Assembly: GCA_038214755.1 (NCBI GenBank)
Contig: JBBQRQ010000057.1
Location: 1 to 32,027, forward strand
Length of the DNA stretch: 32,027 bases
Direction: 5' to 3'
Source: Verrucomicrobiota bacterium
Lineage (GTDB): Bacteria; Verrucomicrobiota; Verrucomicrobiia; Limisphaerales; CANJXF01
Shown in pieces: positions 10,877 through 29,335 of this stretch; positions within the stretch are counted from its first letter, which is position 1; every line of letters starts with the position of its first letter. The position numbers and the translations under genes are program-made. The notes below the pieces were generated by a model, which did not search any database, was not told the origin of the DNA, and saw nothing but the letters and a program-made list of their open reading frames with translations.

Positions 10877-11143
10877 ATGAAGACCGAAACATTGAACATG
10901 TCGGTGCCGGTTGAACTGGCTGAGTTCGTGCGCCAAGACATGACCGAGGGGCATTTTGCCAATGTGAACGAATACTTTCGCTCCCTCATCCGCCAGCGTC
11001 GGCAAGCGCGCATCGAGGAGGAAGTCCGCTTCCTGGAACAAGCCATGACGGGTGCGCCAGCCGAGGATGCGCCGCCCGAATTCTACGCTCGCGTTCAGGA
11101 ACTACAGAGCCAAATCCGCCGGGATAAAAAGGCCCGCCGGTGA
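10877..11143 (+). CDS. Ribbon-helix-helix antitoxin (ParD/CopG-like)
   Basis: TLNMSVPVELAEFV...GHFANVNEYFRSLIR pattern; GTGA overlap with the PIN gene. Confidence 0.85.
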   Translation: MKTETLNMSVPVELAEFVRQDMTEGHFANVNEYFRSLIRQRRQARIEEEVRFLEQAMTGAPAEDAPPEFYARVQELQSQIRRDKKARR

Positions 11144-11791: not shown

Positions 11792-12026
11792 AATCGGATC
11801 GGTATGATTCACAGCATCCCCGGAGGAAGTCCGGCTGCGAGTATCCAATATCAAGAACCGACCCCTTCACCTTCACGAGATCTTCCGTTTGACCAACAGT
11901 TCAATCTACCCCGCTCCAGCCAGTGCTCGTGGCCGCCAGGCGGCCGGACAGAATGATTTTCCGAACAACGGTTTTACAACGATTCCATCCTCAGGCGCAC
12001 TGTGATAGGCTGGAGCCAGTGAACGC

Positions 12027-13270: not shown

Positions 13271-13581
13271 CGTTGGCAGAACTTCCGGTTCAAAAAAAGT
13301 TCAACTCAGCTTACTTCCACACGTTCCTCGTGGCTGCGGAGACTCACTTTCGTTTTGAATCGCTCCATCCTTTCTTTGACGGCAACGGGCGCACCGGACG
13401 GCTGCTCCTGAACTGGCAACTGCTCCGCGCGGGCTTTCCGCTGACGGTGATTCAAGTCGAGGAGCGGGCGCGATATCTGGGCGCGCTGGATCAGGGACAC
13501 GCGGGCCAACTGCTCGATTTGCAATCCTTGGTCGCAGGTGCGGTCGAGCGCAGTTTGGATTTGGCGGCGGGTGGGAAGTGA
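13267..13581 (+). pseudogene. Truncated/chimeric Fic (repeat copy 3) retaining the catalytic motif
   Basis: 104 aa: unrelated 20-aa N-terminus, then LVAAETHFRFESLHPFFDGNGRTGR... closely matching 10581-10829. Confidence 0.8.
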
Positions 13582-13762: not shown

Positions 13763-14014
13763 GTGCATTCTACACGTAGTTTGAACTGCCCGAAATGTGG
13801 CTCCTCAATTCAACTTCGTGACGGCCTGTTCGCCCTCTATCGGATTTATGTAGTTCCGCCCGGTTTCATTGTTGTGTGTCCAAAGTGCGGATGCTCATTC
13901 TCGCCACAGGAGATCGCGTTGACTGGAACCAAAGGCATATCATGTGGACTAGCAACGACGACGCTGTGGGTTATCTGCCTGTTCGCTTTTCTGGTTGTGT
14001 TGTTGCGTTGGTAA
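13763..14014 (+). CDS. Small zinc-ribbon protein with C-terminal membrane helix
   Basis: GGAGAGGG before GTG; two CPKCG motifs; hydrophobic tail LWVICLFAFLVVLL. Confidence 0.7.
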   Translation: MHSTRSLNCPKCGSSIQLRDGLFALYRIYVVPPGFIVVCPKCGCSFSPQEIALTGTKGISCGLATTTLWVICLFAFLVVLLRW

Positions 14015-14046: not shown

Positions 14047-17000
14047 TTAACGCTCAATCTCTTCAAGGAGGCGCAACAGCGCCCTGATCCGATCCGCCAA
14101 TTCGGGATGGGTGTATAGAAACTTTCTCAAGAACTTGATTTTGCTACCTATGGAAACAGCGCAGTCGTAGAGCAATGTAACTCCAATTTCGTTCCCGAAA
14201 TTGCCTGGCCCTTCTTCAACCGGCCGTCCTGAAGCAAGCGAGAAAATCAGGTCATTAAAAAGTCCAATTGCGACGCTGGCTATGCATCTACGGGTCGCTT
14301 CGCCAATTAAACGTGCGCTGGCTGTAGATGCGCTTTGTTTACCCAGATTCACGCTGTATTCCACGAGCGCCACTAAACCAAATGCGTCGGTTCCCATGTT
14401 TGGGCTATTCAACACGTAACGATAGTTGTTGAAGTCTCCTGCCTCGAATCTAATTGGATCTTGGCTGATAAACCGCCCAAGTTGAGTCGAGTAGTAACGA
14501 GCCCGATAGAAATACAGCCCTGTCTCTCCGTCCAATTCCCGCCCGGTGAACAGAAACCGATCCACCGCACTCTGATTGCTGACACCGAGCACCTGCCCAA
14601 AGCTGCTGTAGTCCACATGAGCGACGACTGCGCCCGCCGCGTTCGCGATGTCGCGCACGGTGCCGAGATGGTCGGTGAGATACCAGCCGCGTCCGTCGCT
14701 TGCGCGCTGGCGGGCGAGCAGTTCGTCAATCCTCGCGCCGTGCAGGTAGCGGGCGATGACGGCGTTGGTGCCGTCGAGGTCGGCCCATGAATCGTCCTGG
14801 TTGTAGAGGAAGCGCGTGACCTGACCGTTCACCGTTTTGTTGAGGCGGCGGTTCATGGCGTCATACACGAACGCCACGGTTTGTGTGACCACGCCGCCGC
14901 CGTCCCGGTCGGTCACATTCACGAGCCGGTTGCGGTGGTCAAACTGGTAGGTGGTGAGCACGCCGGTCACGGTGTTCGACCGAGAGGTCATGTTCCCCTC
15001 GGCATCGTAGGCGTAGCTGTTTGTTCCGTCGGAGAGAATCTGGTTGTTCTGCCCCACCACGTAGCCGCCGCCAGATTGCGCGCCCACGCGATTGCCATTC
15101 GCGTCGTAGTGGAAGTTCTCGTTCGGCTGCGCTTGTCCTCCGGGAACACTGTTCAGCGCGTTGGTGAGTTGCCCGGTTCGGTCGTAGGCAAAGTCCGAGA
15201 GCTGATTGCCAATGGCCCAGCGCGTGATCTGGTAAGCCGCATCGAAGTTGTAATCGTAGCGGGCCAGCACGCTGTTCGTCGGGCCAAGGTGCGTGATGTT
15301 CGTGACGATGCTGGCGCGGTTGTAGGCGTTGGTCGTGCGGCCCACGCGATTCGTGCCCGCGAGATCGGCGAAACGGTCGGTGCGGAGACGGTTTCCCGCC
15401 GGGTCGTAAGCGAAGTCCACCCGCGCCGGGTCCACGCCAGAAGGTCCCGGCATCGAAGATGACCAGGTGCGGCTCGCCAGGCGATTGCGATTGTCGTAGC
15501 CCGAGCCCACGCGCACGCCCCAGTTGTCCGTCACGGACTCGACCTGCCCGAGCGCCGTGTAGGTGTAGAGGAGCGTGAAGTCCGGAACGCCCGCCGATTG
15601 CGCGAGCGTCCGCTCCAGCCGGTTCAACGCATCGTAGCTGTATTCGTAGCGCGCCGCCGGGTCCGCCGCGAGCGTCTGCACGCCGAGTTCATTGAACCCA
15701 AAAACAATCGAGCGAACGACGTTGGTGCCTTCCCACCAAAGTTCATTCGTCATCCGATTCGCGGCGTCATAGGCGAAGGTGCGCCGCCGGCCATTGCGGT
15801 CAATCGCCTCGATACGATTCCCCGCCGCATCGTATCCAAAGAAGTTCGTGTGCCCCAGCGGATCAATCTGCCGGATGAGCCGGTTACCCGCGTCATAGAT
15901 GAAAGTTGTGACGTTCGTCACCGCATCAATGACCTTCGTGCGATTGCCGTTTCCATCATATTCAAACCGAACTACGCCACCTTGGGCGTCGATGATGGCG
16001 TTCGTTCGATTCAGCACATCGTATTCATAGCGGGTGCTGCGGCCCAGCGCGTCCACGATGTTGGTTAGGAGCGGGCCGTTGTAATAAAAATAGGTATAGT
16101 TGCTCAGTGCGTCGCGCGTCCTGAGTAACTTCCCGCTGGTGTCGTAGAAAGAGAGCGATTCCGCGCCCAATTCATTGATAGTGCGAGTGGCATTTCCGAG
16201 CGAGTCGTATTCATAGAGTTTGAACGAACCGTCAGGATTAATCACTTTGGCTGGCTTGCCGCAGGTGCAACCGCCCGTGTAGTCAAACTGAGTCGTATTG
16301 CCCGCCGCGTCCGTGAGGCTGGCGACACGACCTTGACTGTCGCGCGTCACAATCGTTTTTAATCCCGCGTTGTTGACGACTTCGACCAACTTGCCCGCGC
16401 TGTCATAGCGCAAGTTCAGTGTTTGTCCCAAAGCGTTGACGACAGAGACCGGTTTGCTTTGAGCGTTGTATGCAATCGTCGTGCGATTCGAGAGAGCATC
16501 TGTAATGGTTTTAACATTTCCTCGCGCATCGTAAGTGAAATTCGTGGCAAAGCCCCGGCCATTGGTAGAGGCGAGCAAGTTGTTGTTCGCGTCATAGGCA
16601 AAATAATTCGTGGAAATTCCAACGATGGCTTTTACCAGTTCATTTCCATTCGCATCGAATTTGCTGATGTTCGTATTCCCGTTTCCGTCCGTGAACGTTG
16701 CGACGCGGGTGTTTGGATCGAAGTCTTGATTCAATTTGTGACCTTCGGCATCCGTGATGGAAAGAAGGCGTCCGGTCGCATCATATTCCATGCGCAGAGC
16801 GGAGCGGCCAAATGGATCAATGATATTGGTGAGATAATGCGCGCGTTGCGTCGAATACAGGTATTGCGTCGTATTAGTGACCGCATCGGTAAAGGAGCGG
16901 AGATTTCCGGCAGTGTCGTAAGCATAGTTGACGACGACGTTCGGGCCGGTCACTTGACGAATCCGGCCAAAGGCGTCACGGCTGAATGACACGCTTTGAT

Positions 17001-20000
17001 CAGGTGTGGTTGAACCAACCGAGTAATGGAAAATACCGTTCGCTGTGTAATCAAGGCGATTGCCGTTTAAGTCGGTGACGCGTTGCAACCCTTTATTCTG
17101 GTCGTATTCGTAAACCGTGCCGTCCCTCGTGGTTAGCTTGTAGGAATCCGGATCAAAAACTTCGTCGCCCAATCCCCCGAGGAAATCACCACCGAAGACG
17201 ACCACCTGCTTGCCGCCATTTATTTCCAACTTCTCAAAAACGCCAGCATCCGGCTTGAACTCGACATCCGCGAAGACGAAACCAAAAGCGATAACGCGGG
17301 TGGGATAGGCGGTGAAGCCAACACGGCGTCCATCAGGAGTGTTTAGATAAACGCGCGTGCCATTATAGAAGGTTCCATCGTGCAAGGTCTCTCGAATCTG
17401 CGCGCCCTGCACGCCCAACGTCCAGCCGTATCCGAAGTCACCGATGCGCTGCGCATCGCGTGTGTCATAAACGCGGGAAAGAGTGATTGGAATGCCCGCG
17501 AGCGGAACTTCGAGGTCGGTAAATTCCAATCGGAATTCGCCGAATTTCAGGTTCCCACTCACTCCGACGATGACCGGCTCATACCAGCCGGAGCCATTCA
17601 CGTCTTGGGCATACACTCGAATGACGTAAGAATCGTTTTTTAACGCGGTGGGATCAAACGTTGCCAAGGTTGCTGCGTTGATGGCGCGAGTTCCTGAAGG
17701 AAGGCTCACGTTAGTCAGGGTGATAAAGGCAGAGTTAGGCGCTCCGATGTTATTCAGGTCCACCAAATCTACCGGCGCGAAATCGACGCGGTAGGACGCG
17801 AGATCAAACACATTGGTGATCGTGGCGATAACCGGCGTAGGTGCGGTTACCGTCGCGTTATTGGTAGGAGTGAGAATTGAAACGAATACAGTATTTGTCG
17901 CACGGGGGTCACGGAATTGAATTGGCCGCGTGGCCGTGCCGATGTTATTGGCAGCGTCTGTGGCGATACCAATCACGTTGAACAATCCGGTTTGATTGAC
18001 CACGAAAGACCCGACGCCATTTGCCGCCAGCGGAATATTATTTGTGCCGATTCGCAGAGATCGGCTGGCAACACTGATGTTATCTGTGGCGTTTACTCGA
18101 ATTTTCACGGTGGAGCCTAAATCACCTGCCCATTGTCCCGAATCGAGGTTGACCAAACCTTGAATAAGATCAAGCGACACCGTGGGCGGTTGCGTGTCCG
18201 CCGCGACTTGCACCATGAAGGACTGATTCGCCGTCGCGCCAAAGCTGTCGGTCACATTGACTGTGAATGACTGCACTCCAACTTGTGTAAAGATTGGAGT
18301 CCAGGTGAGACGACCCAGGTTGTCAATGATCGCCCCGGCAGGAATGGGAGCGGTTAAAGTGTAGGTAAGAGCATCTCCGTCCGCATCGTAAGCGGTCACA
18401 TCGTATCGATAGGTGACGCCCGGCACCGCATTAGTAGGAGGGGAGGACGTAATCACCGGCGGTTGATTGGAACGGACCAAAACATTGAACCGCTGCGCAG
18501 AACTGGCGAGCGAGGGGTCTTTGGCAACCAGGATGAATTCGTTTATGCCAAGTTGCGAGAAGGTTGGAGTCCAACGAACGACCGCTTCTGCCAAGCCTGC
18601 GCTTGAAGTCGTGGGAGTAAGAGTGGCACCCGTGGGCAGCACCAACGACTGAAGAGTGAGGGCGTCCCCATCCGCATCGGTCGCGCGGAGAGTGTAGGTA
18701 TAAGGTCGATTTACCGTGGCTCCCAGAAATGGACTGGAAAGGATGACAGGCGCTTTGTTAGCCTTTGAGTTGACCACATAAAGAGAATAATTCTGCGTGT
18801 CGCTTCCACCCCGACCATCACTCACACGGACTCGAATAAATTGCGCGCCGACCTGATTCGTCGTCGGCGTCCAGCGGATGAGTCCGTTGGTTGAATTAAT
18901 CGTCATGCCGGAAGGCGCGGGGGTCGCGAAGCTCCAACTCAGTTTGTCGCCGTCCGGGTCTGTGGCGCGCGGAGCGTAGAGATATAAAGTCCCCGTATGC
19001 CCTTCGACGGGCGGGACGGAGCTAATCTGCGGCGGGCGGTTCACACAACCAACGTCGATGTTGAAACTCTGTGTAGTGCTGGCGGAAAAGATGTCTCGCG
19101 CTTCGATGATTACGTTGTTAGTTCCTAATTGATCCAGGGTTGGAATCCAAAGGACTTTGCCGCTGACAGAATCAATGGACATGCCTACAGGTCCGCTGAC
19201 TAAGTTCCACGTCACAGGGTCGCTGTCAGGGTCTATGACAAACGCGTCGTATTCGTAGGTTTGTCCATCCGTGGCATTCAATGATGGACTGGAGGTAATC
19301 AACGGCGCTGAATTGCTTAGAGTTGAAGTGACGTTGAGAATGAATTGTTGGGTGACTATTCCACTTGCACGGCCATCACTGACCGCCAAGGACACCGGGA
19401 ATTGTCCAAGGCCGCTCGGAGTCCACAAGAGGAGTTTAGAGTTGAAAGTTGAGGGTTGTGAGTTGGTCAGGCTCATTCCGGATGGACCGCTGACAAGGGA
19501 GAAGGCGAGCGGGTCGCCATCCGCGTCAGTTGCTTCGGCGAGATACATATAGGGAAAACCAATGCGTGTTTGAGTGCGCGGGCTGGTAGTAAACAGCGGC
19601 GCGTGATTGGGTGCAAAGACAACAACTTCGAGATCGAACACCTGCCGAGCCTCAGCCCCCTTGGAATCGCGCACGATGATTTCAATCCGATTAGTGCCGA
19701 TGTTTGTCAGAGCGGGAGTCCAGTCGAGAACGGCGGAATTGAGAGTTGAAGGTTGAGAGTTGAGCGACATTCCCGCTGGTGCGTTTGAGCCAAGAGAGAA
19801 CGTGAGGGTTTGACCCTCCGCGTCTTGAGCGCGAACAATGTAGCGATAGGGCAAGTTCGTCACGGCAGGGTTGGGCGGGAAGGACGTGATAATCGGAGGA
19901 GAATTCGGTGCGATGACGGTGATTCGGAACGATTGCAGCGCAACGCCTCCACGCCCGTCCTGAACCCGCAATATTACATCTTGAGCACCAAGTTGTATGA

Positions 20001-23000
20001 GCAGTGGTCGCCAGGCGACCACCCCAGTATTCGTATTCACCAACATACCATCAGGATGCGTTACTAGATCGAATGAAAGGAGGTCGCTATCGCCGTCATC
20101 TGCGACTGCTTCGTAGCGATAAACAGTTGCGACTGTGGAAAGAAGAGGCGCAGACGAAATGAATTGTGGGTTGCTATTAGAGGACGAGGTGATCTGACGA
20201 AGTCCGAAGTCTACTCCGGCAACGATCTGATCATTACTTAGCGTAATTTGATGTGCTGTTTGAACCGGCGCCGTTCGTTGCCATCCGGGAGGTTGTTCCT
20301 CCATCACAAAATTTGTGCCAGCAGGCAAACTGTTGAATCCGTAGGTTCCAGCAGAATCAGTTCGCACGAACGGCTCCCCAATATCCCTATGGTTGTTGCG
20401 ATTTCGGTCAATAAAAACGATCCAGTCGGTCAGTCCTGTCTCTGGAATGTTTTTAACTCCGTTTGAGTCGAGGTCGTTGAAGACGATGCCATGAATTTCG
20501 GCTGTTCCCCTAGGAAGGACATTGACACTGAATGTTTGCTCGTCAACGCCGCCTCGTGAATCGCTTACTACGACTTTTACATCGTATGTTCCAAGCTGAT
20601 TGGTTCTTGGCGACCAAATCATCAAACCATTCGTAGGGTTGACGCTCATTCCATTCGGAGCAATCCCCAACGAAAAGCTTAATAAATCCCCGTCGGGATC
20701 AACGGCACGAACTAAATAGAAATAGTTAGTATCAGCGGTGGAGGTAGGGAGGCTTATAGCGGTTGCCTGAATATCTACGTAAGTGACAGCACCATAATCA
20801 TGGCCACGAACAGCGAGCAGATTTGTTCCGGGATAAAAAATATTGGAAGATACATAAAAAACGTATTGATCTCTCCTCGCACAGCCGCCACTTGTCCGCA
20901 GTCCACCCGACACGTCCAGGCCATTAATGAAAACCTGAAGATCATTGTCAATGGCTGCTCCGATTTTCAGTTGTTGAATGCCTTGAGGGAGAACAAAGCG
21001 CTTGCGCAATAGAATATCGGTATTCACGTTCCAAAGCGTTCTGGCATATTCGGGGATACTGAGAGGGCAATTAGACAGATTACCGAACCCACCCTGACCG
21101 ACAGCGAAGAGTGAGTCATCATAGTTCGTTGCTTCAAAGCCAGTACCTTGTCCCGACGCAACTTCCTTGTAGCGGTATCCTTCAGACAGATAAGAAATGA
21201 CGACGTTTGTTTGAAAAATGCTGAAGGATGGTGGAAGAAAAACCTCTGTATTAGGAGTGCTGACGATGATCGGCGGACGATTACCTTCAGCGGGCAGAAC
21301 ACAAACAAAGTAAGATTGCGTGTTGGAGCCGCCGCGCCCGTCTTGAACCAGCACAGTCACATTGTGTGTGCCGGTTTGTTCGGCGGTTGGCCCCCAGCGG
21401 ATGAGGCCGGTGCCCGGGTTAATGGTCATATTCGTCGGAGCGGTGACAAGAGAGTAGGTCAGCGTATCGCCGTCGGGGTCGAGGGCATCGGCGTCGTAAA
21501 CGTAGGAAGGTGAATGGCCCGGATCATCAAAAGTGATGTCGTCGTAAGCGAACCCACTGACACCCCCCAAGCTTTGCAAAACCACGGAAGAGATCGGCGT
21601 CCCCGAAAACGTCACCGTTACTCCTCCATTCGTGCCCTCAAAGGTTGTGAACGAACGGGCTTGCAGCAGTTCGCCATGAAGTCCATAAAACCTAATCTCA
21701 AACGACTCACTTGCGCCATCTCCGTCGCCGACTCGCACTGAGAAGAAGTCCGTGGCGCTCGGTTGACCAGATGTTGGGTCGATGATTCTAATGGTCGAGC
21801 TATTGGCCGCAGAGGTCCCGATACTGACTGCGTTTCGCGGAGAAGACCCAAAATCGACAATCCCAAAATCACCTCGAATAAAGTCGACGACAGTCCCTGC
21901 AACGCCAGAATGTTCAAATAAAAGCCCCATCGACTGATACTGGTTCGTAACAGTGTTTAGAGGAAGGAGATCGTCAAACGTCACAACCAAGCGCCTAGCC
22001 ACCGGTTCTATCCGCGCCACAGTCACCGGCGTGGAGACAAAATAGGGTGGCCGGTTGGACGGCGCGGTGATGACGCTAAGTAGAAAATGCTGCTCGGCCA
22101 CGCCACCCTTGCCGTCGTCGGCGCGAAGGCGGATGTCGTGGGTGCCGATTTGCGCGGTTGAGGGTGTCCAGCGGAGTTGAGGGTTGATGGGTGAGGTTTG
22201 AGAGTTGGTCAAGCCCGCCGGGGCAGTGAGCAGCGAATACGTGAGCGCGTCACCATCAGGATCAGTCGCGCTGAAGGCGTAGGTGTAGGCGTGGCCGGCG
22301 ATGACTTCCAGCGGCGGAGCCGTGGTAAAGTAAGGCGCTTGGTTCAACTGGCCGAGGACGACGAGTTCGTAGGTGAACTGGACTTTATTCGGGTTGTGAA
22401 ATGCGAGGGTTCGGCTCAGGGAGGTTTGCTGAGGGTTGATAGTTCCATTCGTCAGCGTCGTTGTGAAATCGTAATAAGGGACGCCGTCGGCGGTTACACC
22501 ATCGGCGGCGAGAAGGCGCACGGTGGGATCGCTGATGTGGGTGACGCCAACATAGAACGGGGCGCGGACGGGATAGGTGCCACCGTTGCGTAAGGCGAGA
22601 TCGGCGTAGAGGGTTTTGGTCCACTCGTTGAAACTAGTGCGACCGTATTCGGGTTGCACGCTGGCGGAGACGACCTGGAGAGTAGAAGCGTTGTTAGGAC
22701 AGGCACCCTGGAGGATAAGTGTGTTGGTGGTGGTTTGGCCGAAGAAATCGGTAGCCGTCACGGCAAACGTGTTCAAGCCGGGGCGGATTTGGACGGCGCT
22801 GTAGTAGTTACCCGCAGGGTCGAGTGCTTCCACGGAAGCACCGTTCAGCGTGACGTGAGTAATAGAGTTGCCGACGACAGACCCGCCCGGCGCACTGGGT
22901 TGCGCGGCGGTTGCCTGACCGCTGAGAAGGACGGTCGCGCCAGGAGCGAATACAGTTCCGGGCGCATCGGTAACGAGCGATGGAGGCGGAACAGCGAGGA

Positions 23001-26000
23001 CAGTGATGTCCTGCACGGAGGGCGTGGCATCCTGGAGGTCGGAGCGCAGAGATACTTCTACTTGGAAGAATCGACCCCGAACTCCTGGTAGAGTCTGTGC
23101 AGATACTACCTCCACAAATGATAAATTGAGCAAGGCATCACGGCTATCGGAAGCTCGCACACGGATACGAGTGGAGGTCGCCGTAGGAGTCGCAGCGCTA
23201 ATGGCGACAGCGCCCCAAGCCGTTGCTTCCTTCCCGCTATCGGCTATTGCGGTCCAGGTGCCGCTCGGACTCGTTGTGGTGAAGGTGCTAAGGCCCGTGG
23301 CGTCTGTGTAGAGGTAGGGATAGTTACCGACTGGGAATACGCCTAGCGGCGCGCCGTCGAACCCTCTGAACTTAGAGATATTAGAGGTGTCAAGGTGGAT
23401 TTGCCAGACGTTGTTGTCGGAATCAACGACAGTCCCTCGCACTTGTCCGGTCCCGGTCTGCTTGGGTCGCGACCAAAGAACGCTGCCATCCGGTCTAAAT
23501 TTGGTCGCGCCGCCGCTGATAAAGGGCCCCGCCAACAGGTTGCCATCCATGTCCACCGCCAGATGAAGCGAACTGAAGCAGGAGGCGGCAGGTGCCCGAA
23601 ACACTTCCGTCAGTGGGTTGAATTCCAAAAAGGTGCAACCGCCTTGATAGGCTGATACGTAAACGCGGTTGTTGCCAACGGCGATGCCGTATCCTTCGCT
23701 GAGGTAAGAGCCAATGTTATAAATGCGATTGGTCAGCTGAACCGTATCGAACTTCAAGAGACTTGTGCCTTCATTGGGCGACCATAGCACCCCTTGGCCA
23801 TCAATCACCGCTCCGTAGGGCTGATGCGGGGCCACGCTAATCGGTCCCAGCAAAATATGTCCGTCGTCGGGACTTAACTTATAAAACGTCCGAGCACTAT
23901 AAAGGCCAAGCCAAATATTACCGTCACGGTCTAGCGTCAAGGCTCGCCCAAGCCCGCCAGCGGGTCCCACCGATACGATCCAGGCAATTCGCTCATCACG
24001 GATTTCAGCGGGATCAATACGTCCATTTCCGTTTGTGTCGCCCATCGGCAGAAACTCATCGACTCCGATCATGCCGTTGGTGTTCGCGTCAAACGAGGTG
24101 TCGATGACCCCATTGTTGTTCCGGTCGATGCCACCAAAAGCGAGGATTTTGATCACGTCTGTAGGACGATTATCAAAATGGCGGTTAGCTACATAAACGT
24201 TACCATCGCGATCTACCGCCGTTCGGGAAGGGGCGGCACCTTCCGACTGATTTAAGTGATTGAAATAGCCCGGCTGTCCAGCGGGTCCAAACCAAGTTCG
24301 ATAGCGGGCTGTCTCGCGACCCGTGCGTGTGTCGATTTTCGAAACGGTGTCCTCACCCGTGTTCGGAATCCACATGACGGGAAAGGTGGTGCGATTTGAA
24401 CTGAGCCTCAGTTCATCGAATATGTTGGTTGCTGTGACGTTGAACAGTGTGCCGCGCTGGAAGTCAGCAGTAGTTGTAAAGACCAGCCAACCATCAGAAG
24501 GAAGTAATGAATCCCCGTTGGTGGTTTCGGAACCAGGCGAGCCGCCGCCGAAAAGGTTGGTGGGATAGTGCGTGACGGAGGCGATCAAGCCAGCGGCACG
24601 TGGGCCATCTGAGCCGGGTGGACAGTCCGAGTTGGTCGAATTCCTCCGAGCAACGATGCCAGAACCGCCGCCCAGCAGCGAGAATGCAGTTGGCGGCGAA
24701 CCGTTTAGGTTCAGGGATGGGTCGGCGGCTTTCCAACGAACGTCCACGATGCGGATGGTGGTGTGGCGGTCAAGGTCGTTGTTCACGAGGCGCAGGATTA
24801 GTTTCGCGTTGGAGTTGGCAGCAAGGTGGCTTACGTCAGCGAATATGGTTGAGAGTTGAGGGTTGAGGGTTGAGGGCTGGAAAGCAGTGCCGGGTCCGGC
24901 GAATGGCGATTTGCCATCGGAGTGGTTGAAGAATGCGGCGGGATTTGCCGGAAGCGTTGAAGGTGTATCTACGTTGGCCGGTGTGACACTGGCACTTCCC
25001 TGGATCGTAAAGGTAAGCGGGCGGCCGCTGGCATCGACGAGCGCGGCTTCGAAAGCGTCGCGCATTAGGTTAGTGGCCGAAGAATCAAATGTGGGCGCGC
25101 TGTATTGAATGGTCAGCAGACCGGGAGTGGGTGGAATGATGAACGATTTCTCCAACGTGACAGTGAAGGAATCTCCTTCCGTCATCACGGCTTCGCAGTT
25201 GGTGAAAATAACGGAACCAGGAGTTGCCGCTGGCGCTCTACTCACAACCCAGCCACTGCCGTTTGGAAAGAAACACTCGCCTTCTCCGAGGACAAAAGGG
25301 AGCAGGAAGGTGGAGGAAATCGTTCCATTGGTTTCCACGGTTCGTAAGACAAGGACATTTGTGCCGAGAAGAAGAGGGCCACCTTTAATTTGCGCAAGAC
25401 GATTGGAACTAAAACGAAAGGTGCCGTTGGTAGTCAGGTCAGAGATGACATTTAGAAAATTGGTGGGAACAACGGAGATATTGGTGGTGAGCGCGGCACG
25501 AAAGCTAGCGGAATTGTTCGTGCGAAACACTGTGCCAGATATGGTCGGGTCGGAAGTAATTGAGTCCGTGGCGCTGGTTCCGGTATCGTTCGCCAACGCG
25601 GCAAAAATTCCGGGCTGTGGAGGGAAGATGGTGAAGTAATTTGATTGGAACAAAGGGAGATCATTGGAGTTAACGATTCCATCGCCGCTAAAATCGAAGC
25701 GACGGTCAAAACCGATTTGGTTCGACGCGCGAAGCCATGTGCTCTTGAACCAGTAAGTGTCGGCAAAATCGACGTCGCGGTCACCATTCACGTCCCCGGA
25801 ATAACGATAGAATTGAAACGCCAGCGGGTCGCCCGGAGCGCCGCCCGGGACGCCGATCAGCGCGTTGCCATTGGTGTCGGTAACGGCGGAGGAGGGAAGC
25901 CCGGCCAGCCAATTGCCAGGCGGCAGTGAACCTCCTGCTAAACCGGGGAAAGTCCAGGTAGCCTCGTGGGTAAGCGAGTCGTAGGAAAGCGCGAGGTTGG

Positions 26001-26250
26001 TGGAAGGTAAGTTTGTGCCAGTGGTAAGGTTTTGGAGAAGGAGGTTAGGGCTGGCAATGGCTACATTCGTATTAAATGTAACGGCGAGATTCGTAACGAC
26101 ACTGCGGCTGGCATCGCCGTGGTTGATGCGAACTTGAGTAACGACGGGCTGCGCCCATGATTGCAGACAACTTGCGGGTGAGACAATCAACGCAATCTGT
26201 ATCCAAACAATAGTCTGCTGGAAAAAATTGAGTGGGCGATATTTTTTCAT
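14047..26250 (-). CDS. Giant secreted RHS/YD-repeat protein (4067 aa): dockerin, beta-propeller, tandem putative-Ig (He_PIG-like) repeats, SdrD-B-like and jelly-roll domains, RHS core, about 108-aa tip
   Basis: Signal-like N-terminus; paired EF-hand loops GDVNGDRDVDFAD and DFSGDGIVNSND; many NxPPxIxSxP...DxDGD...WTP repeats; YD repeats; core DHLGTVR...YSSFG...FTGRELD...YFYRARYY...GRFISQDP...SPNMGTDAFGL. Confidence 0.95.
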   Translation of the reverse strand: MKKYRPLNFFQQTIVWIQIALIVSPASCLQSWAQPVVTQVRINHGDASRSVVTNLAVTFNTNVAIASPNLLLQNLTTGTNLPSTNLALSYDSLTHEATWTFPGLAGGSLPPGNWLAGLPSSAVTDTNGNALIGVPGGAPGDPLAFQFYRYSGDVNGDRDVDFADTYWFKSTWLRASNQIGFDRRFDFSGDGIVNSNDLPLFQSNYFTIFPPQPGIFAALANDTGTSATDSITSDPTISGTVFRTNNSASFRAALTTNISVVPTNFLNVISDLTTNGTFRFSSNRLAQIKGGPLLLGTNVLVLRTVETNGTISSTFLLPFVLGEGECFFPNGSGWVVSRAPAATPGSVIFTNCEAVMTEGDSFTVTLEKSFIIPPTPGLLTIQYSAPTFDSSATNLMRDAFEAALVDASGRPLTFTIQGSASVTPANVDTPSTLPANPAAFFNHSDGKSPFAGPGTAFQPSTLNPQLSTIFADVSHLAANSNAKLILRLVNNDLDRHTTIRIVDVRWKAADPSLNLNGSPPTAFSLLGGGSGIVARRNSTNSDCPPGSDGPRAAGLIASVTHYPTNLFGGGSPGSETTNGDSLLPSDGWLVFTTTADFQRGTLFNVTATNIFDELRLSSNRTTFPVMWIPNTGEDTVSKIDTRTGRETARYRTWFGPAGQPGYFNHLNQSEGAAPSRTAVDRDGNVYVANRHFDNRPTDVIKILAFGGIDRNNNGVIDTSFDANTNGMIGVDEFLPMGDTNGNGRIDPAEIRDERIAWIVSVGPAGGLGRALTLDRDGNIWLGLYSARTFYKLSPDDGHILLGPISVAPHQPYGAVIDGQGVLWSPNEGTSLLKFDTVQLTNRIYNIGSYLSEGYGIAVGNNRVYVSAYQGGCTFLEFNPLTEVFRAPAASCFSSLHLAVDMDGNLLAGPFISGGATKFRPDGSVLWSRPKQTGTGQVRGTVVDSDNNVWQIHLDTSNISKFRGFDGAPLGVFPVGNYPYLYTDATGLSTFTTTSPSGTWTAIADSGKEATAWGAVAISAATPTATSTRIRVRASDSRDALLNLSFVEVVSAQTLPGVRGRFFQVEVSLRSDLQDATPSVQDITVLAVPPPSLVTDAPGTVFAPGATVLLSGQATAAQPSAPGGSVVGNSITHVTLNGASVEALDPAGNYYSAVQIRPGLNTFAVTATDFFGQTTTNTLILQGACPNNASTLQVVSASVQPEYGRTSFNEWTKTLYADLALRNGGTYPVRAPFYVGVTHISDPTVRLLAADGVTADGVPYYDFTTTLTNGTINPQQTSLSRTLAFHNPNKVQFTYELVVLGQLNQAPYFTTAPPLEVIAGHAYTYAFSATDPDGDALTYSLLTAPAGLTNSQTSPINPQLRWTPSTAQIGTHDIRLRADDGKGGVAEQHFLLSVITAPSNRPPYFVSTPVTVARIEPVARRLVVTFDDLLPLNTVTNQYQSMGLLFEHSGVAGTVVDFIRGDFGIVDFGSSPRNAVSIGTSAANSSTIRIIDPTSGQPSATDFFSVRVGDGDGASESFEIRFYGLHGELLQARSFTTFEGTNGGVTVTFSGTPISSVVLQSLGGVSGFAYDDITFDDPGHSPSYVYDADALDPDGDTLTYSLVTAPTNMTINPGTGLIRWGPTAEQTGTHNVTVLVQDGRGGSNTQSYFVCVLPAEGNRPPIIVSTPNTEVFLPPSFSIFQTNVVISYLSEGYRYKEVASGQGTGFEATNYDDSLFAVGQGGFGNLSNCPLSIPEYARTLWNVNTDILLRKRFVLPQGIQQLKIGAAIDNDLQVFINGLDVSGGLRTSGGCARRDQYVFYVSSNIFYPGTNLLAVRGHDYGAVTYVDIQATAISLPTSTADTNYFYLVRAVDPDGDLLSFSLGIAPNGMSVNPTNGLMIWSPRTNQLGTYDVKVVVSDSRGGVDEQTFSVNVLPRGTAEIHGIVFNDLDSNGVKNIPETGLTDWIVFIDRNRNNHRDIGEPFVRTDSAGTYGFNSLPAGTNFVMEEQPPGWQRTAPVQTAHQITLSNDQIVAGVDFGLRQITSSSNSNPQFISSAPLLSTVATVYRYEAVADDGDSDLLSFDLVTHPDGMLVNTNTGVVAWRPLLIQLGAQDVILRVQDGRGGVALQSFRITVIAPNSPPIITSFPPNPAVTNLPYRYIVRAQDAEGQTLTFSLGSNAPAGMSLNSQPSTLNSAVLDWTPALTNIGTNRIEIIVRDSKGAEARQVFDLEVVVFAPNHAPLFTTSPRTQTRIGFPYMYLAEATDADGDPLAFSLVSGPSGMSLTNSQPSTFNSKLLLWTPSGLGQFPVSLAVSDGRASGIVTQQFILNVTSTLSNSAPLITSSPSLNATDGQTYEYDAFVIDPDSDPVTWNLVSGPVGMSIDSVSGKVLWIPTLDQLGTNNVIIEARDIFSASTTQSFNIDVGCVNRPPQISSVPPVEGHTGTLYLYAPRATDPDGDKLSWSFATPAPSGMTINSTNGLIRWTPTTNQVGAQFIRVRVSDGRGGSDTQNYSLYVVNSKANKAPVILSSPFLGATVNRPYTYTLRATDADGDALTLQSLVLPTGATLTPTTSSAGLAEAVVRWTPTFSQLGINEFILVAKDPSLASSAQRFNVLVRSNQPPVITSSPPTNAVPGVTYRYDVTAYDADGDALTYTLTAPIPAGAIIDNLGRLTWTPIFTQVGVQSFTVNVTDSFGATANQSFMVQVAADTQPPTVSLDLIQGLVNLDSGQWAGDLGSTVKIRVNATDNISVASRSLRIGTNNIPLAANGVGSFVVNQTGLFNVIGIATDAANNIGTATRPIQFRDPRATNTVFVSILTPTNNATVTAPTPVIATITNVFDLASYRVDFAPVDLVDLNNIGAPNSAFITLTNVSLPSGTRAINAATLATFDPTALKNDSYVIRVYAQDVNGSGWYEPVIVGVSGNLKFGEFRLEFTDLEVPLAGIPITLSRVYDTRDAQRIGDFGYGWTLGVQGAQIRETLHDGTFYNGTRVYLNTPDGRRVGFTAYPTRVIAFGFVFADVEFKPDAGVFEKLEINGGKQVVVFGGDFLGGLGDEVFDPDSYKLTTRDGTVYEYDQNKGLQRVTDLNGNRLDYTANGIFHYSVGSTTPDQSVSFSRDAFGRIRQVTGPNVVVNYAYDTAGNLRSFTDAVTNTTQYLYSTQRAHYLTNIIDPFGRSALRMEYDATGRLLSITDAEGHKLNQDFDPNTRVATFTDGNGNTNISKFDANGNELVKAIVGISTNYFAYDANNNLLASTNGRGFATNFTYDARGNVKTITDALSNRTTIAYNAQSKPVSVVNALGQTLNLRYDSAGKLVEVVNNAGLKTIVTRDSQGRVASLTDAAGNTTQFDYTGGCTCGKPAKVINPDGSFKLYEYDSLGNATRTINELGAESLSFYDTSGKLLRTRDALSNYTYFYYNGPLLTNIVDALGRSTRYEYDVLNRTNAIIDAQGGVVRFEYDGNGNRTKVIDAVTNVTTFIYDAGNRLIRQIDPLGHTNFFGYDAAGNRIEAIDRNGRRRTFAYDAANRMTNELWWEGTNVVRSIVFGFNELGVQTLAADPAARYEYSYDALNRLERTLAQSAGVPDFTLLYTYTALGQVESVTDNWGVRVGSGYDNRNRLASRTWSSSMPGPSGVDPARVDFAYDPAGNRLRTDRFADLAGTNRVGRTTNAYNRASIVTNITHLGPTNSVLARYDYNFDAAYQITRWAIGNQLSDFAYDRTGQLTNALNSVPGGQAQPNENFHYDANGNRVGAQSGGGYVVGQNNQILSDGTNSYAYDAEGNMTSRSNTVTGVLTTYQFDHRNRLVNVTDRDGGGVVTQTVAFVYDAMNRRLNKTVNGQVTRFLYNQDDSWADLDGTNAVIARYLHGARIDELLARQRASDGRGWYLTDHLGTVRDIANAAGAVVAHVDYSSFGQVLGVSNQSAVDRFLFTGRELDGETGLYFYRARYYSTQLGRFISQDPIRFEAGDFNNYRYVLNSPNMGTDAFGLVALVEYSVNLGKQSASTASARLIGEATRRCIASVAIGLFNDLIFSLASGRPVEEGPGNFGNEIGVTLLYDCAVSIGSKIKFLRKFLYTHPELADRIRALLRLLEEIER
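19433..19467. repeat. Degenerate 7-bp tandem repeat (RGTTGAG)x5 inside the RHS gene
   Basis: AGTTTAG AGTTGAA AGTTGAG GGTTGTG AGTTGGT; encodes TNSQPSTFNSKL. Confidence 0.7.
19737..19764. repeat. 7-bp tandem repeat (RGTTGAG)x4 inside the RHS gene
   Basis: AATTGAG AGTTGAA GGTTGAG AGTTGAG; encodes LNSQPSTLNS. Confidence 0.75.
22175..22209. repeat. Degenerate 7-bp tandem repeat x5 inside the RHS gene
   Basis: AGTTGAG GGTTGAT GGGTGAG GTTTGAG AGTTGGT; encodes TNSQTSPINPQL. Confidence 0.7.
24847..24881. repeat. 7-bp tandem repeat x4-5 inside the RHS gene
   Basis: GGTTGAG AGTTGAG GGTTGAG GGTTGAG GGCTGGA; encodes QPSTLNPQLST. Confidence 0.8.
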
Positions 26251-26286
26251 AAGGGCTTTGGTGCCGCAGTTGGAATGAAATGTTTT

Positions 26287-27333
26287 TTAGAATGAGAAGA
26301 TGATTCCCGTATTGAGAGACCAGGTTTGGCCTAGATCGAGAGTGACCGAGTGGTTCCCGGTGCGTTGAGAGAAATCGCTTAAATGTTGGTATTCACCTTG
26401 CAGAAACAATCCGAGGTGTTTTGTAAGACCTAAGTTGAAGCCGGCATCGATATAGCCTCCAACAAACGCATCCACGCTATCATTACTTCCGTTTAGTGTT
26501 CTGGTAGAGGAGTCGGGTAGAGTAGCGATTTCATGGAAGCGAAAGTTCCCGCTTGATATACCCCAGGCAATGCCACCGCCTGTCTGGAATGAGATGCGCC
26601 GGGTGAGCGGGATTTCAATCCACGGGCCGATCTTGAAACCGAAAATATCGTCGTCAATGGTTCGATGCCCCGAAATATTAGCGGAACCATTGAAGGAAAA
26701 ATCGCGAGTGACCGGATGATCATCAATAATGGGCGCGGGGCCATTAAGACCTTGATCAAATGTCGCAGCGTATTGCCATGGGCTGCCTCCTGCGGGGGGA
26801 AGAATACCGCCCAGGGAATAGGTATCGGTGAGCCGCCTGACGGAGGGTGAAACCACGTGACGGTCGGTGATATTGATGTTCAGGTAATTAAACGCGAACT
26901 TAAAACCGATTGAGGCGAAGTCTCCTCGTTTGATTTCGCGAAGCCATGCGAGTTCGACCCCTGCTTGAGGGTCGTTTGCGTATTCACGAGTGGAAGCCGA
27001 GCCGAGCTTACTGGCGTGTTGCAGAAGGGTATCGTTTCCGGGAACTTGAGCAACATCACGATAGCCCCAATACCAAGTCAGGTCTTGGGCGTTGCCATCG
27101 GCATCCACGCGAACATAGCCATCGTCATAGTTTCGGTTTATTCCACCGCCAATGGGCGCGCCTGGATTGGTGCCAGGAAGATAGCCGCCTCGATAGTCAA
27201 ATTTGGCGGAGATGTTGAAAGGGAGCCTTGCCCCGAGCGTGAAGCGATTCACTTCTGGTTGGGCTTCTGGGTCGGCGGCATCCGCACAGAATGAACACAT
27301 AAGAAAGGTTGAGAGAAGGAGACGAGTTTTCAT
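26287..27333 (-). CDS. Outer-membrane beta-barrel protein of unknown function
   Basis: Signal peptide, alternating amphipathic strands, C-terminal beta-signal WSLNTGIIFSF ending in Phe. Confidence 0.85.
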   Translation of the reverse strand: MKTRLLLSTFLMCSFCADAADPEAQPEVNRFTLGARLPFNISAKFDYRGGYLPGTNPGAPIGGGINRNYDDGYVRVDADGNAQDLTWYWGYRDVAQVPGNDTLLQHASKLGSASTREYANDPQAGVELAWLREIKRGDFASIGFKFAFNYLNINITDRHVVSPSVRRLTDTYSLGGILPPAGGSPWQYAATFDQGLNGPAPIIDDHPVTRDFSFNGSANISGHRTIDDDIFGFKIGPWIEIPLTRRISFQTGGGIAWGISSGNFRFHEIATLPDSSTRTLNGSNDSVDAFVGGYIDAGFNLGLTKHLGLFLQGEYQHLSDFSQRTGNHSVTLDLGQTWSLNTGIIFSF

Positions 27334-27394
27334 AAGAAGGCGGTTCCCGATTCAGACGGGGTAGAGGTAAGGCGTTTTGAGTTCATCAAGAGAG

Positions 27395-28594
27395 TTATGG
27401 GAGCAGGAACAGGCGGTAAAATCGTTCCGTGTCAGTAGCGGGCGGACGATCCGTTTTCGGTGGGCCGTAGTCGATCCATTGGATGCGGCTTCCATTGCCG
27501 AGAAGCGCGGGCACGACGGTAGTCCAGTTCGTAAGCTCGTGGCTGTATTGGATGCGATAAGAGCGGTTGGAAAGGCTGTTGAATTCCAGCAGAAAAGAGC
27601 CGTCAGGTAGGACGGCGCGCACGGGCAAAGGCTGAGGCGTGCCGTTCGGTGTTGGCGGGGACGGAAACGGGCCGATGATTTCCACGGTGTAGTTGGGTTG
27701 CGGACTGGGAATGCGATTGGGAACGCGATATTCAACGCGCAAGTCCACGAACTCTCCGGGAGCTAAAGGAGAGTTGGATTGAAGGAAGGGATGCCCGTTT
27801 GTCGCTCCGGTTGCATTCATCACGGACCATGTCGAGGCCATGTTCAACACGTGCAAGCGCACAGCCGGAGCAATGTGGGAGAGGTTGTTTATGATTCGGA
27901 CGGTTTGGTCAAAGAAGCCGGTCTGGCGATTGAGAGTGATGCTAGAAAGATTTGATGAGCTGAGGGTGCCTTCCCTCACTACCATTGCGGTGTTGAAGGC
28001 GATTAACGGGTCAAGCACTTGACCAGCACCATTGACGAAGATTTGTTCCGTTGGGCCAAGTGTGTTGAAGAATTCCAACTGCAATTGATAGGAACCGGGA
28101 GCCAAATCGGTAATGTAAAATGTGGCGAGTAATGCGTTGGACGAACTGCGAAGCGAATTGCTGTAAAATTGAGTCGTTCCCTTAACTGCCGCGAAGTTGC
28201 CGCCCGCGGCAACCACCGCCGATTGCGCACGCGGTCCATCGAAAGCAAAATCGCCAGGCACGGTGATAGCGCCCACGCCGCTGATCCGCGCGTTGGTGGA
28301 ATTGATGCGCATTCTTACGCCAAAGCTATACAGGCCAGCCGGAGGAGTGGGGGTGATGAGAACTTGCACCGGGAACGTTTCCCCTCCTTGAATCAGATAC
28401 TGTTCGCGGTCAAAGGTAATTAGGTAGTTAGTCGGGCTGGATACCGTTTGGGATTGAGCGCAAGTGACCCCACAAAAGAGCGCGAGGAGACAACCGCGAA
28501 TAGAACACGCACGAAAGTTCCAGACAAATCGAAACCTTCTAAGAAAAAACGTGGAAAAGGCGGCGCGCGGGCAGGAGAGTTGAAACAGATTCAT
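27395..28594 (-). CDS. Secreted protein: cohesin-like domain, Ig-like domain, Pro linker, C-terminal ...FYR domain
   Basis: Signal peptide ending near CAQSQ; cohesin-type pattern GETFPVQVLI...GLYSFGVRM...LLATFYI...GSYQLQL; tail SYRIQYSHELTNW...WIDYGPP...RFYRL. Start ATG 28594 or GTG 28627. Confidence 0.8.
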   Translation of the reverse strand: MNLFQLSCPRAAFSTFFLRRFRFVWNFRACSIRGCLLALFCGVTCAQSQTVSSPTNYLITFDREQYLIQGGETFPVQVLITPTPPAGLYSFGVRMRINSTNARISGVGAITVPGDFAFDGPRAQSAVVAAGGNFAAVKGTTQFYSNSLRSSSNALLATFYITDLAPGSYQLQLEFFNTLGPTEQIFVNGAGQVLDPLIAFNTAMVVREGTLSSSNLSSITLNRQTGFFDQTVRIINNLSHIAPAVRLHVLNMASTWSVMNATGATNGHPFLQSNSPLAPGEFVDLRVEYRVPNRIPSPQPNYTVEIIGPFPSPPTPNGTPQPLPVRAVLPDGSFLLEFNSLSNRSYRIQYSHELTNWTTVVPALLGNGSRIQWIDYGPPKTDRPPATDTERFYRLFLLP

Positions 28595-28646
28595 ATCGTT
28601 TGAGGTCGCTTTGACTCTTTGTGCCACAGGCTGGCAGGGCTGCGGT

Positions 28647-28696: not shown

Positions 28697-29335
28697 CTAA
28701 CGCTTCAAATGAGGAACGTATTTGGTCATCGCTTCTGCGCGATTATGAACCTGGAGCTTTTCATAGATATGTCTTATGTGCTGATCCACAGTATGGCGGC
28801 TGATTTTGAGGCGGGAAGCGATGTCTTTATTCGGTCGGCCCCGAGCAACGTGGTCGAGCACTTCGCACTCGCGGTCAGTTAGACTACTCAACCCGGGTGC
28901 CGGAAGCGGAAGAGCCTGAAAATATTGCGTCACCTTCCGGGCGATAGCGGGACTCATGGGGGAACCGCCCTCAACGGCTTCTTCGATAGCACTCACAATC
29001 TGCGCAAGTGGCGTTCTTTTTAGTAAGTAACCGCAGGCACCGGCTTTGAGACTCTCAAAGATTTTCTCATGATCTTCATGCACCGTCAGAATAAGTATCA
29101 ACAAGGTAGGACAACGGTGTTTCAGCGCTCGTGCGCATTCAACGCCGCTTGCGCCGGGAAGGCTCAGGTCGAGAAGGACAATATCGCATTGATACACAGG
29201 AAGTCTCTTTAGCGCATCTTCAGTCGAACGGTGCGTCGAGAGACAACGAAAACCAGGCGTCCCATTAAACAGAACGGCGAGAGATTCGCGGGCTTGATCA
29301 TCGTCTTCAATAATGGAGACGCGAATGATACTCAT
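28697..29335 (-). CDS. NarL/FixJ-family response regulator (REC + LuxR HTH)
   Basis: IIEDD, VLLDLSLPG, GYLLK, LTDRECEVL...NKDIA...TVDQHIRHIYEKL. Confidence 0.96.
   Translation of the reverse strand: MSIIRVSIIEDDDQARESLAVLFNGTPGFRCLSTHRSTEDALKRLPVYQCDIVLLDLSLPGASGVECARALKHRCPTLLILILTVHEDHEKIFESLKAGACGYLLKRTPLAQIVSAIEEAVEGGSPMSPAIARKVTQYFQALPLPAPGLSSLTDRECEVLDHVARGRPNKDIASRLKISRHTVDQHIRHIYEKLQVHNRAEAMTKYVPHLKR

Follow-up and report, generated by a model that had tools for sequence, protein, structure and literature searches.

We propose that a giant RHS protein is held at the cell surface of a Verrucomicrobiota bacterium by what is likely a tether of two interchangeable modules, of which module A is a cohesin with its dockerin-bearing cargo and module B is an eight-stranded barrel with a specific C-terminal tail. 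The window analysed is a 32,027-nucleotide stretch (GenBank assembly GCA_038214755.1, contig JBBQRQ010000057.1, positions 1 to 32,027). It contains three co-oriented ORFs on the minus strand, at 27395-28627 (410 aa), 26287-27333 (348 aa) and 14047-26250 (4067 aa), with intergenic gaps of 61 bp (adaptor/barrel) and 36 bp (barrel/RHS), in agreement with the initial annotation. The features are as follows.

28697-29335, minus strand: NarL/LuxR-type response regulator, 69 bp upstream of the trio and, from context, its possible regulator
27395-28627, minus strand: adaptor with one cohesin, 410 aa if read from the first GTG, made up of signal peptide, cohesin, middle beta-sandwich and GPPKT/FYR tail
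27965-28429, minus strand: cohesin domain of the adaptor, aa 67-221 (AlphaFold2 model and structural search)
27668-27964, minus strand: middle beta-sandwich domain of the adaptor, aa 222-320, inherited together with the GPPKT tail (alignment A5)
27395-27640, minus strand: C-terminal tail of the adaptor, belonging to the GPPKT subtype of a FYR-ending domain common in the genome; candidate barrel-binding sorting signal
26287-27333, minus strand: 8-stranded outer-membrane beta-barrel, 348 aa, C-terminal Phe (model and fold search)
14047-26250, minus strand: 4067-aa secreted RHS protein, N-terminal hydrophobic stretch from aa 14
25801-26151, minus strand: Ig-like module, aa 34-150, ahead of the dockerin and conserved with it (alignment A4), forming an X-module/dockerin-like dyad
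25633-25800, minus strand: dockerin, aa 151-206, two calcium-loop motifs (Pfam, profile and motifs)
18181-22338, minus strand: Ig-repeat stalk, about aa 1305-2690, with nine He_PIG stretches and one SdrD-B (Pfam; approximate boundaries)
14377-17703, minus strand: YD/RHS repeat shell and RHS-associated core (Pfam/NCBIfam; left boundary approximate)
14047-14376, minus strand: 109-aa hydrophobic variable C-terminal tip, unlike the tips of seven homologs

The cohesin-like domain that had been proposed for the first ORF was borne out by fold. When the AlphaFold2 model of the adaptor (pLDDT 79.9) was compared with 48,161 chains in a structural search, the top 20 rows were cohesins; the best, 4uyp_A, aligned over 136 residues of model aa 67-221 (Z 13.4, rmsd 2.8), the first non-cohesin appeared at Z 10.2, and a Foldseek check also returned cohesins. 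The domain gave no Pfam or NCBIfam match (the PF00963 cut-off was not reached) and no sequence match among solved structures, and one relative gave a sub-threshold PF00963 match (E 0.0024). The hydrophobic stretch at the adaptor N-terminus starts at aa 43, and the true start probably lies downstream of the first GTG.

The two-EF-hand dockerin of the RHS protein lies exactly where it was initially annotated, with calcium-binding motifs at aa 153-164 and aa 186-197. Pfam Dockerin_1 scored below its cut-off (E 0.0019, 18.8 bits against 22.9), and in a search with a 12-sequence dockerin profile the top three places went to solved dockerins (E 1.8e-6, 1.4e-5 and 0.002). The Ig-like module that travels with the dockerin had been overlooked. 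The modelled complex of the adaptor cohesin and this dockerin scored 0.90 and the best of three controls 0.01. The mark applied was attained by 116 of 157 solved pairs and by 2 of 215 mismatched ones; for runs with their own alignments and calcium these counts hold only approximately. The runs had at least 93% of contacts in common, with a partner pLDDT of 94, and most predicted contacts fell on dockerin helix 1, the two dockerin halves being asymmetric. Columns of the predicted interface were more conserved than the rest in the cohesin (0.65 vs 0.43, 149 rows) and only slightly more so in the dockerin (0.67 vs 0.61, 12 rows). The modelling thus predicts that the adaptor cohesin binds the RHS dockerin through conserved residues, in line with the docking first suggested. 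We also note that a pass in the complex modelling may stem from likeness to solved cohesin-dockerin complexes.

The association of cohesin and dyad was followed in a sample of 401 genomes and in 160 loci, where related genomes are non-independent and the tallies therefore overstate. The cohesin occurs in 19 of the 160 loci; the dyad adjoins it or lies past the barrel in 14, and the other 5 are cut short. A neighbour was readable for 13 of 24 cohesin genes and was dyad-bearing every time. Tail loci with at least 2.6 kb downstream held both cohesin and dyad (10) or neither (99), with no discordant case. By genome, the dyad is present in 16 of the 19 with the cohesin versus 28 of the 382 others. 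The three genes, whose co-occurrence the initial annotation put forward as a check, show conserved adjacency, with 10 distinct trio loci in two gene orders. Genomes with all three are rare (5 of 401), and the cohesin was not found in eight genomes of the same genus. The dyad sits near the N-terminus in all nine RHS proteins surveyed and C-terminally in nine non-RHS giants; in three cases (L006/L008, L228 and L237) an N-terminal dyad belongs to a protein that lacks RHS. In nine dyad genomes the adjacent slot holds a different small secreted FYR-tailed protein, and eight of these genomes lack any match to this cohesin family, the ninth having only a fragment. For the second small FYR-tailed family, beside C-terminal dyads (alignments A6 and A7), hhalign did not support homology to the cohesin (0.2-0.5%), and there was no Pfam or PDB match. 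The cohesin gene is preceded by a regulator and an FG-GAP kinase in loci L002 and L003; a promoter and terminator scan gave signal at or below chance.

These data bear on the alternative that the genes form a co-inherited surface-protein cassette, in which the dockerin would function alone as a calcium-binding module, without binding this cohesin in vivo. Such a cassette would fit the dyad profile matches in 44 of 401 genomes, 28 of which are without this cohesin family, as well as the sub-threshold Pfam scores and a complex model whose pass may reflect resemblance to solved pairs. However, the adjacency outlasts changes in gene order, cargo, dyad position and anchor type, the conservation of the cohesin peaks at the predicted interface, and the nine dyad genomes just described fill the neighbouring position with a small secreted FYR-tailed protein of a different kind. 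We consider the cassette very improbable.

The third gene was confirmed as an RHS protein with an Ig stalk: PF05593, TIGR01643 and TIGR03696 scored above cut-off, a PxxxxDxxG-type cleavage motif is present in the RHS core at aa 3949-3958, and the stalk consists of He_PIG Ig repeats. Past the core, no significant similarity was found among eight complete homologs, as with the variable tips of polymorphic toxin systems. The one strong tip pair among the homologs is explained by remnants of the core in two entries that were cut at the wrong place. The 109-aa tip gave no convincing Pfam family, only a sub-threshold match; no co-oriented immunity ORF or plausible small gene follows the RHS gene, which is followed by a convergent 83-aa zinc-ribbon membrane ORF. 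No sign of T6SS delivery was found: the 97% complete genome has no PAAR/VgrG-family match (controls positive), as had been noted for the locus, and the RHS protein has a signal peptide. A search for the T9SS Por secretion tail gave no match in the genome, a result shared by equally silent control genomes, and four secretins pass the cut-off.

The second gene encodes a beta-barrel, as initially read. Its model (pLDDT 89.1) is eight-stranded, its best natural matches are OmpW, OmpA, OprF and NspA, all 8-stranded (Z 17-18), and it ends in an aromatic residue in the manner of the OmpA/OmpW type; Pfam gave only a match at E 0.094, and Atlas clusters are unnamed. Two large conserved loops (aa 40-124 and aa 158-218) hold 11 of the 13 conserved non-Gly positions, and standard barrel topology would place them outside the cell. 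The initial annotation took the barrel to belong to the RHS system and to export or anchor the scaffold. Dedication to the RHS system is ruled out: many unrelated, usually ordinary, adhesins carry the middle domain with the GPPKT tail and have this barrel as partner, and a second barrel-tail pair in the source genome carries an ice-binding adhesin. The barrel adjoins the tail gene in 125 of 140 informative loci (absent beside the tail in 15), and among the 401 genomes both occur in 197, the barrel only in 25, the tail only in 18 and neither in 161. The bare FYR ending proposed as the barrel's partner is generic (136 to 168 ORFs in the source genome, by pattern), and only the GPPKT subtype, with eight invariant columns within its last ~30 residues (41 sequences), tracks the barrel. 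The middle domain, also overlooked at first, resembles a CBM2 fold weakly (Z 8.6 to 3ndy_E over aa 220-318) and matched no Pfam family in 41 members apart from weak scattered matches. Because barrel and tail genes are paired, anchoring of the adaptor by the barrel, loops to tail, is plausible. Mutual information over 100 non-redundant barrel-tail pairs (effective number 75) gave no usable covariation, the top pairs being conserved columns, and the barrel-tail identity correlation of 0.79 is confounded by co-inheritance.

Could the barrel, perhaps in oligomeric form, instead be a dedicated, two-partner-like pore that exports the tail-bearing protein? Strict gene pairing with huge, varied passengers (frames up to 15,710 codons) recalls two-partner secretion, and the fold matches include two Legionella Dot/Icm porins (Z 17.8 and 10.7). 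To our knowledge, protein translocators have 12 or more strands. With the eight strands of the model, the barrel is too narrow for export of the scaffold through it to be likely; POTRA and Omp85 features are absent, and the conserved residues lie in loops, not strands. We regard the pore as very improbable. A two-partner or autotransporter translocator was likewise rejected, since these are a 16-stranded Omp85 barrel with POTRA or a 12-stranded barrel, in contrast to the OmpW/OmpA-like barrel here.

The C-termini of the cohesin family were also tallied. Among the best 150 of 396 representatives, 69 end in a PEP-CTERM-like segment, 27 in the middle domain and GPPKT tail, 15 in a generic FYR tail and 8 in middle-only or variant forms, with 27 other and 4 cut; three of the nine short endings scanned first, plus one more, passed the Pfam PEP-CTERM cut-off or nearly so. 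The source-genome copy carries the GPPKT tail instead of PEP-CTERM, folded and without a membrane helix, and many cohesin-dockerin loci have a PEP-CTERM or generic FYR tail without an adjacent barrel. As its commonest ending is PEP-CTERM, we infer that the cohesin is a sorted anchor. We also observe that this is one cohesin family with three swappable C-terminal endings. A different reading accepts the binding as real and has the complex released, the adaptor acting as a carrier through a general export route by means of its tail and the barrel as a transient receptor or assembly factor. FYR tails on so many ORFs, mostly without a barrel, would suit an export signal, as would the generic-FYR cohesins that adjoin dyad proteins without a barrel (L026, L134, L226 and L228) and the four secretins. 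Retention is suggested, however, by the membrane-spanning PEP-CTERM, and one barrel per tail-bearing gene resembles a stoichiometric anchor more than a shared factor. Release thus appears unlikely, and we favor the surface tether.

In the tether, all three proteins would pass the inner membrane by their signal peptides. The barrel would insert in the outer membrane, where its two large loops may grip the adaptor's middle domain and GPPKT tail, as gene pairing suggests. The single cohesin would take the N-terminal dockerin of the RHS giant with calcium, and the Ig stalk would project the RHS shell and variable tip outward to contact other cells or surfaces. The C-terminus of RHS proteins is self-cleaved cargo. 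For this reason the RHS protein presumably cannot carry a C-terminal sorting signal of its own, which the adaptor would provide in trans. The outer membrane would probably be crossed by a general pathway, for instance a secretin system of the genome, rather than through this barrel. More tentatively, the GPPKT tail and barrel could constitute an undescribed, widespread display pathway of Verrucomicrobiota, in about half of the order's genomes, in which the loops of a dedicated barrel receive a folded tail; the cohesin adaptor would plug into barrel-tail or PEP-CTERM sorting and tether giants of up to ~11,000 aa, including contact-acting RHS effectors, without a T6SS, Tc or two-partner system. 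We regard this wider reading as quite possible rather than likely.

If true, the tether would offer a route for holding signal-peptide RHS and other giant proteins on a diderm surface, a step usually left open, and would extend cohesin-dockerin anchoring beyond carbohydrate breakdown. Through its three swappable endings, the cohesin family points to the FYR tail, very common in Verrucomicrobia and still unnamed, as a candidate sorting signal that is now testable; the barrel-tail pair, present in the genome of a cultured species (L070), is testable as well, and its small size could make it a display tool.

No description of such a system was found in the literature, where surveys of non-cellulosomal cohesin and dockerin modules may already list such proteins. 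WapA is a signal-peptide RHS polymorphic protein. The RHS giant resembles this class, as far as the available text describes it, in its Sec signal, YD shell, core motif and variable tip (PMC3482391); the same text does not mention dockerin, cohesin or PEP-CTERM, and no immunity gene was found here. Clostridial type I cellulosome pairs (1ohz, 4uyp, 2vn5, 6kgc) share the cohesin fold (Z ~13, 8-15% identity) and duplicated calcium loops, unlike here in that our system has one cohesin, one dockerin protein, no enzymes and, in the models, mainly helix 1 in use. A cellulosome, with a multi-cohesin scaffoldin and many dockerin enzymes, was rejected, as the source genome has one cohesin and one dyad when searched with these two profiles. 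Non-cellulosomal assemblies have been proposed in diderms, one of them PVC, as the hypothetical planctosome (PMC6461901) and the Ca. Stygibacter complex (PMC8542988); in the accessible portions of these reports they involve peptidases or hydrolases with a lamin-tail domain or CTD proposed as anchor, unlike here, and RHS cargo, PEP-CTERM or a barrel is not described. In Ruminococcus flavefaciens, a Gram-positive, the ScaE cohesin is sortase-anchored to peptidoglycan and binds the XMod-dockerin of CttA, a cellulose-binding cargo; judging from the available part of that report, the arrangement is much like the one proposed here, in that one cohesin ending in a C-terminal sorting motif keeps a large extracellular protein at the surface by its X-module/dockerin dyad (PMC4266597). 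Ours differs in its diderm host, in its PEP-CTERM or barrel-paired tail and in an RHS cargo with an N-terminal dyad, whose Ig module is XMod-like by position. PEP-CTERM/exosortase, as outlined in the accessible text of PMC1569441, sorts varied secreted proteins by a C-terminal tail and is abundant in Verrucomicrobia; the surface location of PEP-CTERM proteins is itself a prediction there. Sorting by a C-terminal tail is common to both, and PEP-CTERM occurs on this cohesin family, whereas the source adaptor has a folded tail without a membrane helix and a one-to-one barrel partner.

The initial annotation placed three tightly spaced, co-oriented genes in the window, and these were confirmed on the minus strand at the claimed positions, separated by 61 and 36 bp. 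The contig belongs to a 5.1-Mb genome that is 97% complete. All three ORFs carry a hydrophobic stretch near the N-terminus, compatible with a signal peptide.

27395-28627 (-): adaptor, 410 aa, with cohesin (aa 67-221), middle domain (aa 222-320) and a tail of the GPPKT subtype of the FYR-type C-terminal domain
26287-27333 (-): barrel, 348 aa
14047-26250 (-): RHS giant (P0003), 4067 aa, with Ig-like module (aa 34-150) and dockerin (aa 151-206)

A NarL-type regulator (28697-29335) precedes the adaptor gene, and an FG-GAP-repeat histidine kinase (6616-9069) lies downstream; in two related loci, L002 (7033-9961) and L003 (3-2417), such genes adjoin each other upstream of the cohesin gene, the kinases sharing 28% identity. 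An ORF of 83 aa that runs convergently with the RHS gene (13763-14014, +) encodes a zinc-ribbon protein whose C-terminus has a hydrophobic stretch. The window also harbors a cytosine methylase (5146-6342) and a toxin-antitoxin-like cluster (9131-13581, +) of AbiEii-like nucleotidyltransferases, a Fic protein, repeated Fic-tail fragments and an ORF that, from its motif, we take to be PIN-like.

The adaptor received no name from Pfam or NCBIfam. A structure model built from a 19-row alignment (pLDDT 79.9) was compared with 48,161 solved chains, and the top 20 rows were all cohesins. In the best of them, 136 residues (model range 67-221) aligned with Z 13.4 and an rmsd of 2.8; the first non-cohesin fold appeared at Z 10.2. 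Foldseek returned cohesins among many Ig-like chains, and residues 220-320 gave a weaker CBM2-like match (Z 8.6). The structure search thus supports the cohesin-like domain predicted for the first gene. The putative dockerin near the N-terminus of the RHS giant is likewise borne out at the sequence level: residues 151-206 contain two calcium-loop motifs and a sub-threshold match to Pfam Dockerin_1, and the three best solved matches of the dockerin profile are dockerins. The alignment always places an Ig-like module upstream of the dockerin, and we termed this pair the dyad by analogy with XMod-dockerin (passages of PMC4266597). The genome contains one such cohesin and one dyad. Among 401 genomes sampled from the order, all 9 RHS proteins with the dyad carry it close to the N-terminus. 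In 9 non-RHS giants it is C-terminal, and two of these giants show some pre-repeat similarity to the RHS query. Three N-terminal dyads are on proteins without RHS. A repeat region at residues ~620-990 of P0003 (window ~23280-24390) looks like a beta-propeller and contains two additional EF-hand-like loops (aa 709 and 738).

The complex of the cohesin (62-222), the dyad (34-213) and two calcium ions was modeled in three runs, alongside three controls. The score was 0.90 in the three runs, compared to 0.01 for the best control, with contact agreement of at least 93% and a partner pLDDT of 94. Of 157 solved pairs, 116 attain the score mark, as do 2 of 215 mismatched pairs; these counts are only roughly valid here. 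Because like complexes have already been solved, the pass indicates likeness rather than binding. Independently of this score, conservation is higher in the 23 predicted interface columns of the cohesin than in its remaining 131 columns (0.65 vs. 0.43; 149 rows), and the dockerin interface shows a small gain over the rest (0.67 vs. 0.61). We predict that the adaptor cohesin very probably binds the dockerin of the RHS giant.

Pattern scans gave 99 genome and 375 metagenome loci, of which the best 80 each were kept, some being duplicates. The cohesin was found in 19 of the 160 loci kept; the dyad protein lies beside the cohesin or just past the barrel in 14 of them, and the sequence ends too soon in 5. 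Tail loci with 2.6 kb downstream contain both cohesin and dyad in 10 cases, neither in 99 and one alone in none. By hand tally of 24 cohesin genes, all 13 with a neighbor readable to the dyad carry it, and 11 run off contigs. In the 401 genomes, the cohesin occurs in 19, the dyad in 44 and both in 16. Part of the 28 dyad genomes without this cohesin family were examined; in 8 of these, and in one genome with only a cohesin fragment, the gene after the dyad gene belongs to another family of small, secreted proteins with an FYR tail. The family is conserved, and its members, of ~262 aa with a signal peptide, a 160-aa domain and the FYR tail, lie directly downstream of C-terminal-dyad giants in these 9 genomes (L250, L254, L214, L215 and the loci listed here):

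L241:4076-4966, small FYR-tailed protein
L245:4292-5077, small FYR-tailed protein
L251:3143-3931, small FYR-tailed protein
L252:14884-15741, small FYR-tailed protein
L253:8651-9442, small FYR-tailed protein

This family is possibly a second cohesin; homology comparisons with cohesins gave no demonstrated relationship.

The trio (adaptor, barrel and dyad protein) recurs in 10 distinct loci with two gene orders (the window, L002, L003, L005, L006, L008, L010, L083, L085 and L227) but is rare in the order (5/401 genomes). Since the cohesin was also found in 0 of 8 same-genus genomes, the trio is patchy and perhaps mobile. Of the 10 loci, 6 show RHS on the dyad protein itself and 2 on the product of the gene that follows; the remaining 2 are cut short. 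Dyad-protein cargo varies, comprising RHS giants, non-RHS giants (frames up to 12,706 codons) and a split form (L008:12131-15992 and L006:3261-7122) in which an 814-aa PKD-like protein bears the dyad and a separate gene after it encodes the RHS repeats.

A cohesin profile search gave 396 representatives, and the best 150 were classed by C-terminal pattern: 69 end in a PEP-CTERM-like sequence, 27 in the middle domain with the GPPKT tail, 15 in a generic FYR tail and 8 in the middle domain only or a variant, while 4 are cut and 27 fall in none of these classes (including two false giant matches and several further PEP variants). In a Pfam scan of 30 representatives, 3 matched PEP-CTERM above its cut-off and another 3 gave sub-threshold matches. 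The genome encodes two exosortases. PEP-CTERM has been proposed to direct proteins to or through the outer membrane, at that date without experimental proof (passages of PMC1569441). That one cohesin family ends in any of three tails suggests that these do the same kind of job, and the cohesin may be a sorted anchor. A search of mostly open-access literature found no paper combining cohesin and PEP-CTERM. Cohesin-PEP-CTERM genes lie directly beside giants with a C-terminal dyad (~8,500-12,700-codon frames) in L217-L222, L223 and L229-L235, and these giants start with what is presumably a LEPR-type motif. The FYR-type domain, a candidate general sorting signal, terminates 136 to 168 ORFs of the genome and had no Pfam name in the examples scanned.

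The barrel model (pLDDT 89.1) crosses the membrane with eight strands, has two long loops, and matches OmpW, OmpA, OprF and NspA at Z 17-18; Foldseek was less clear, and the Atlas clusters are unnamed. By usual topology, the two loops would face outward, and they contain 11 of the 13 conserved non-glycine positions in 106 barrels. Of 140 informative loci, 125 have the barrel gene next to one that encodes the middle domain and GPPKT tail. Across the 401 genomes, barrel (222) and tail (215) occur together in 197, barrel alone in 25, tail alone in 18 and neither in 161. Of the proteins that bear the middle domain and GPPKT tail, 31 examples were scanned, and most proved to be Ig, DUF11, cadherin-like, FG-GAP, NHL or ice-binding proteins. 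A second pair in the same genome (C44:16002-19912; L001:13003-16913) comprises a 952-aa ice-binding protein (Ig repeats, middle domain, GPPKT tail) and then a barrel paralog, with no cohesin or dockerin. Gene pairing therefore upholds the proposed barrel-tail link, whereas the other passengers argue against a barrel of the RHS system's own and for a separate module of a wider system. The suggested role of the barrel as an export route is unlikely. We consider it fairly probable that its loops hold the tail; barrel-tail covariation analysis gave no usable signal.

The RHS giant contains nine He_PIG stretches, RHS repeats and a core, all above cut-off. The C-terminal tips of 8 complete RHS homologs are unrelated (109 to ~240 aa) and often hydrophobic, and one homolog whose dyad is 97% identical differs in both shell and tip. 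No toxin family was found for the tip and no co-oriented immunity ORF by the RHS gene, so that an adhesin or signaling role is as possible as a toxin function. In line with the initial annotation, to which neither was evident, PAAR and VgrG gave no match in the 97% complete genome, which has four secretins. The genome also encodes five further large RHS proteins (C3, C9, C18, C74 and C100), all of which lack the dyad.

Computation established the folds, motifs, gene pairing and swappable tails. The arrangement is real, conserved and apparently undescribed. It would anchor an RHS cargo by cohesin-dockerin binding and builds on a widespread barrel-tail pair without a name, itself possibly a new display pathway. 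The barrel loops would hold the adaptor tail at the cell surface, and the dyad would be N-terminal in RHS proteins because their C-terminus is cleaved cargo. No description of the cohesin-dockerin-RHS-barrel arrangement was found in the mostly open-access literature covered: cohesin or dockerin domains are mentioned without it in passages of PMC13483458, PMC11557425, PMC9012536 and 10.1101/2023.11.21.568195, and the available text of PMC3482391 contains neither term. Diderm cohesin-dockerin complexes proposed earlier carry enzymes and other anchors (parts of PMC6461901 and PMC8542988). The present system is not a cellulosome, T6SS cargo or a two-partner system, and the known arrangement that would work alike is the ScaE-CttA anchor of R. 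flavefaciens.
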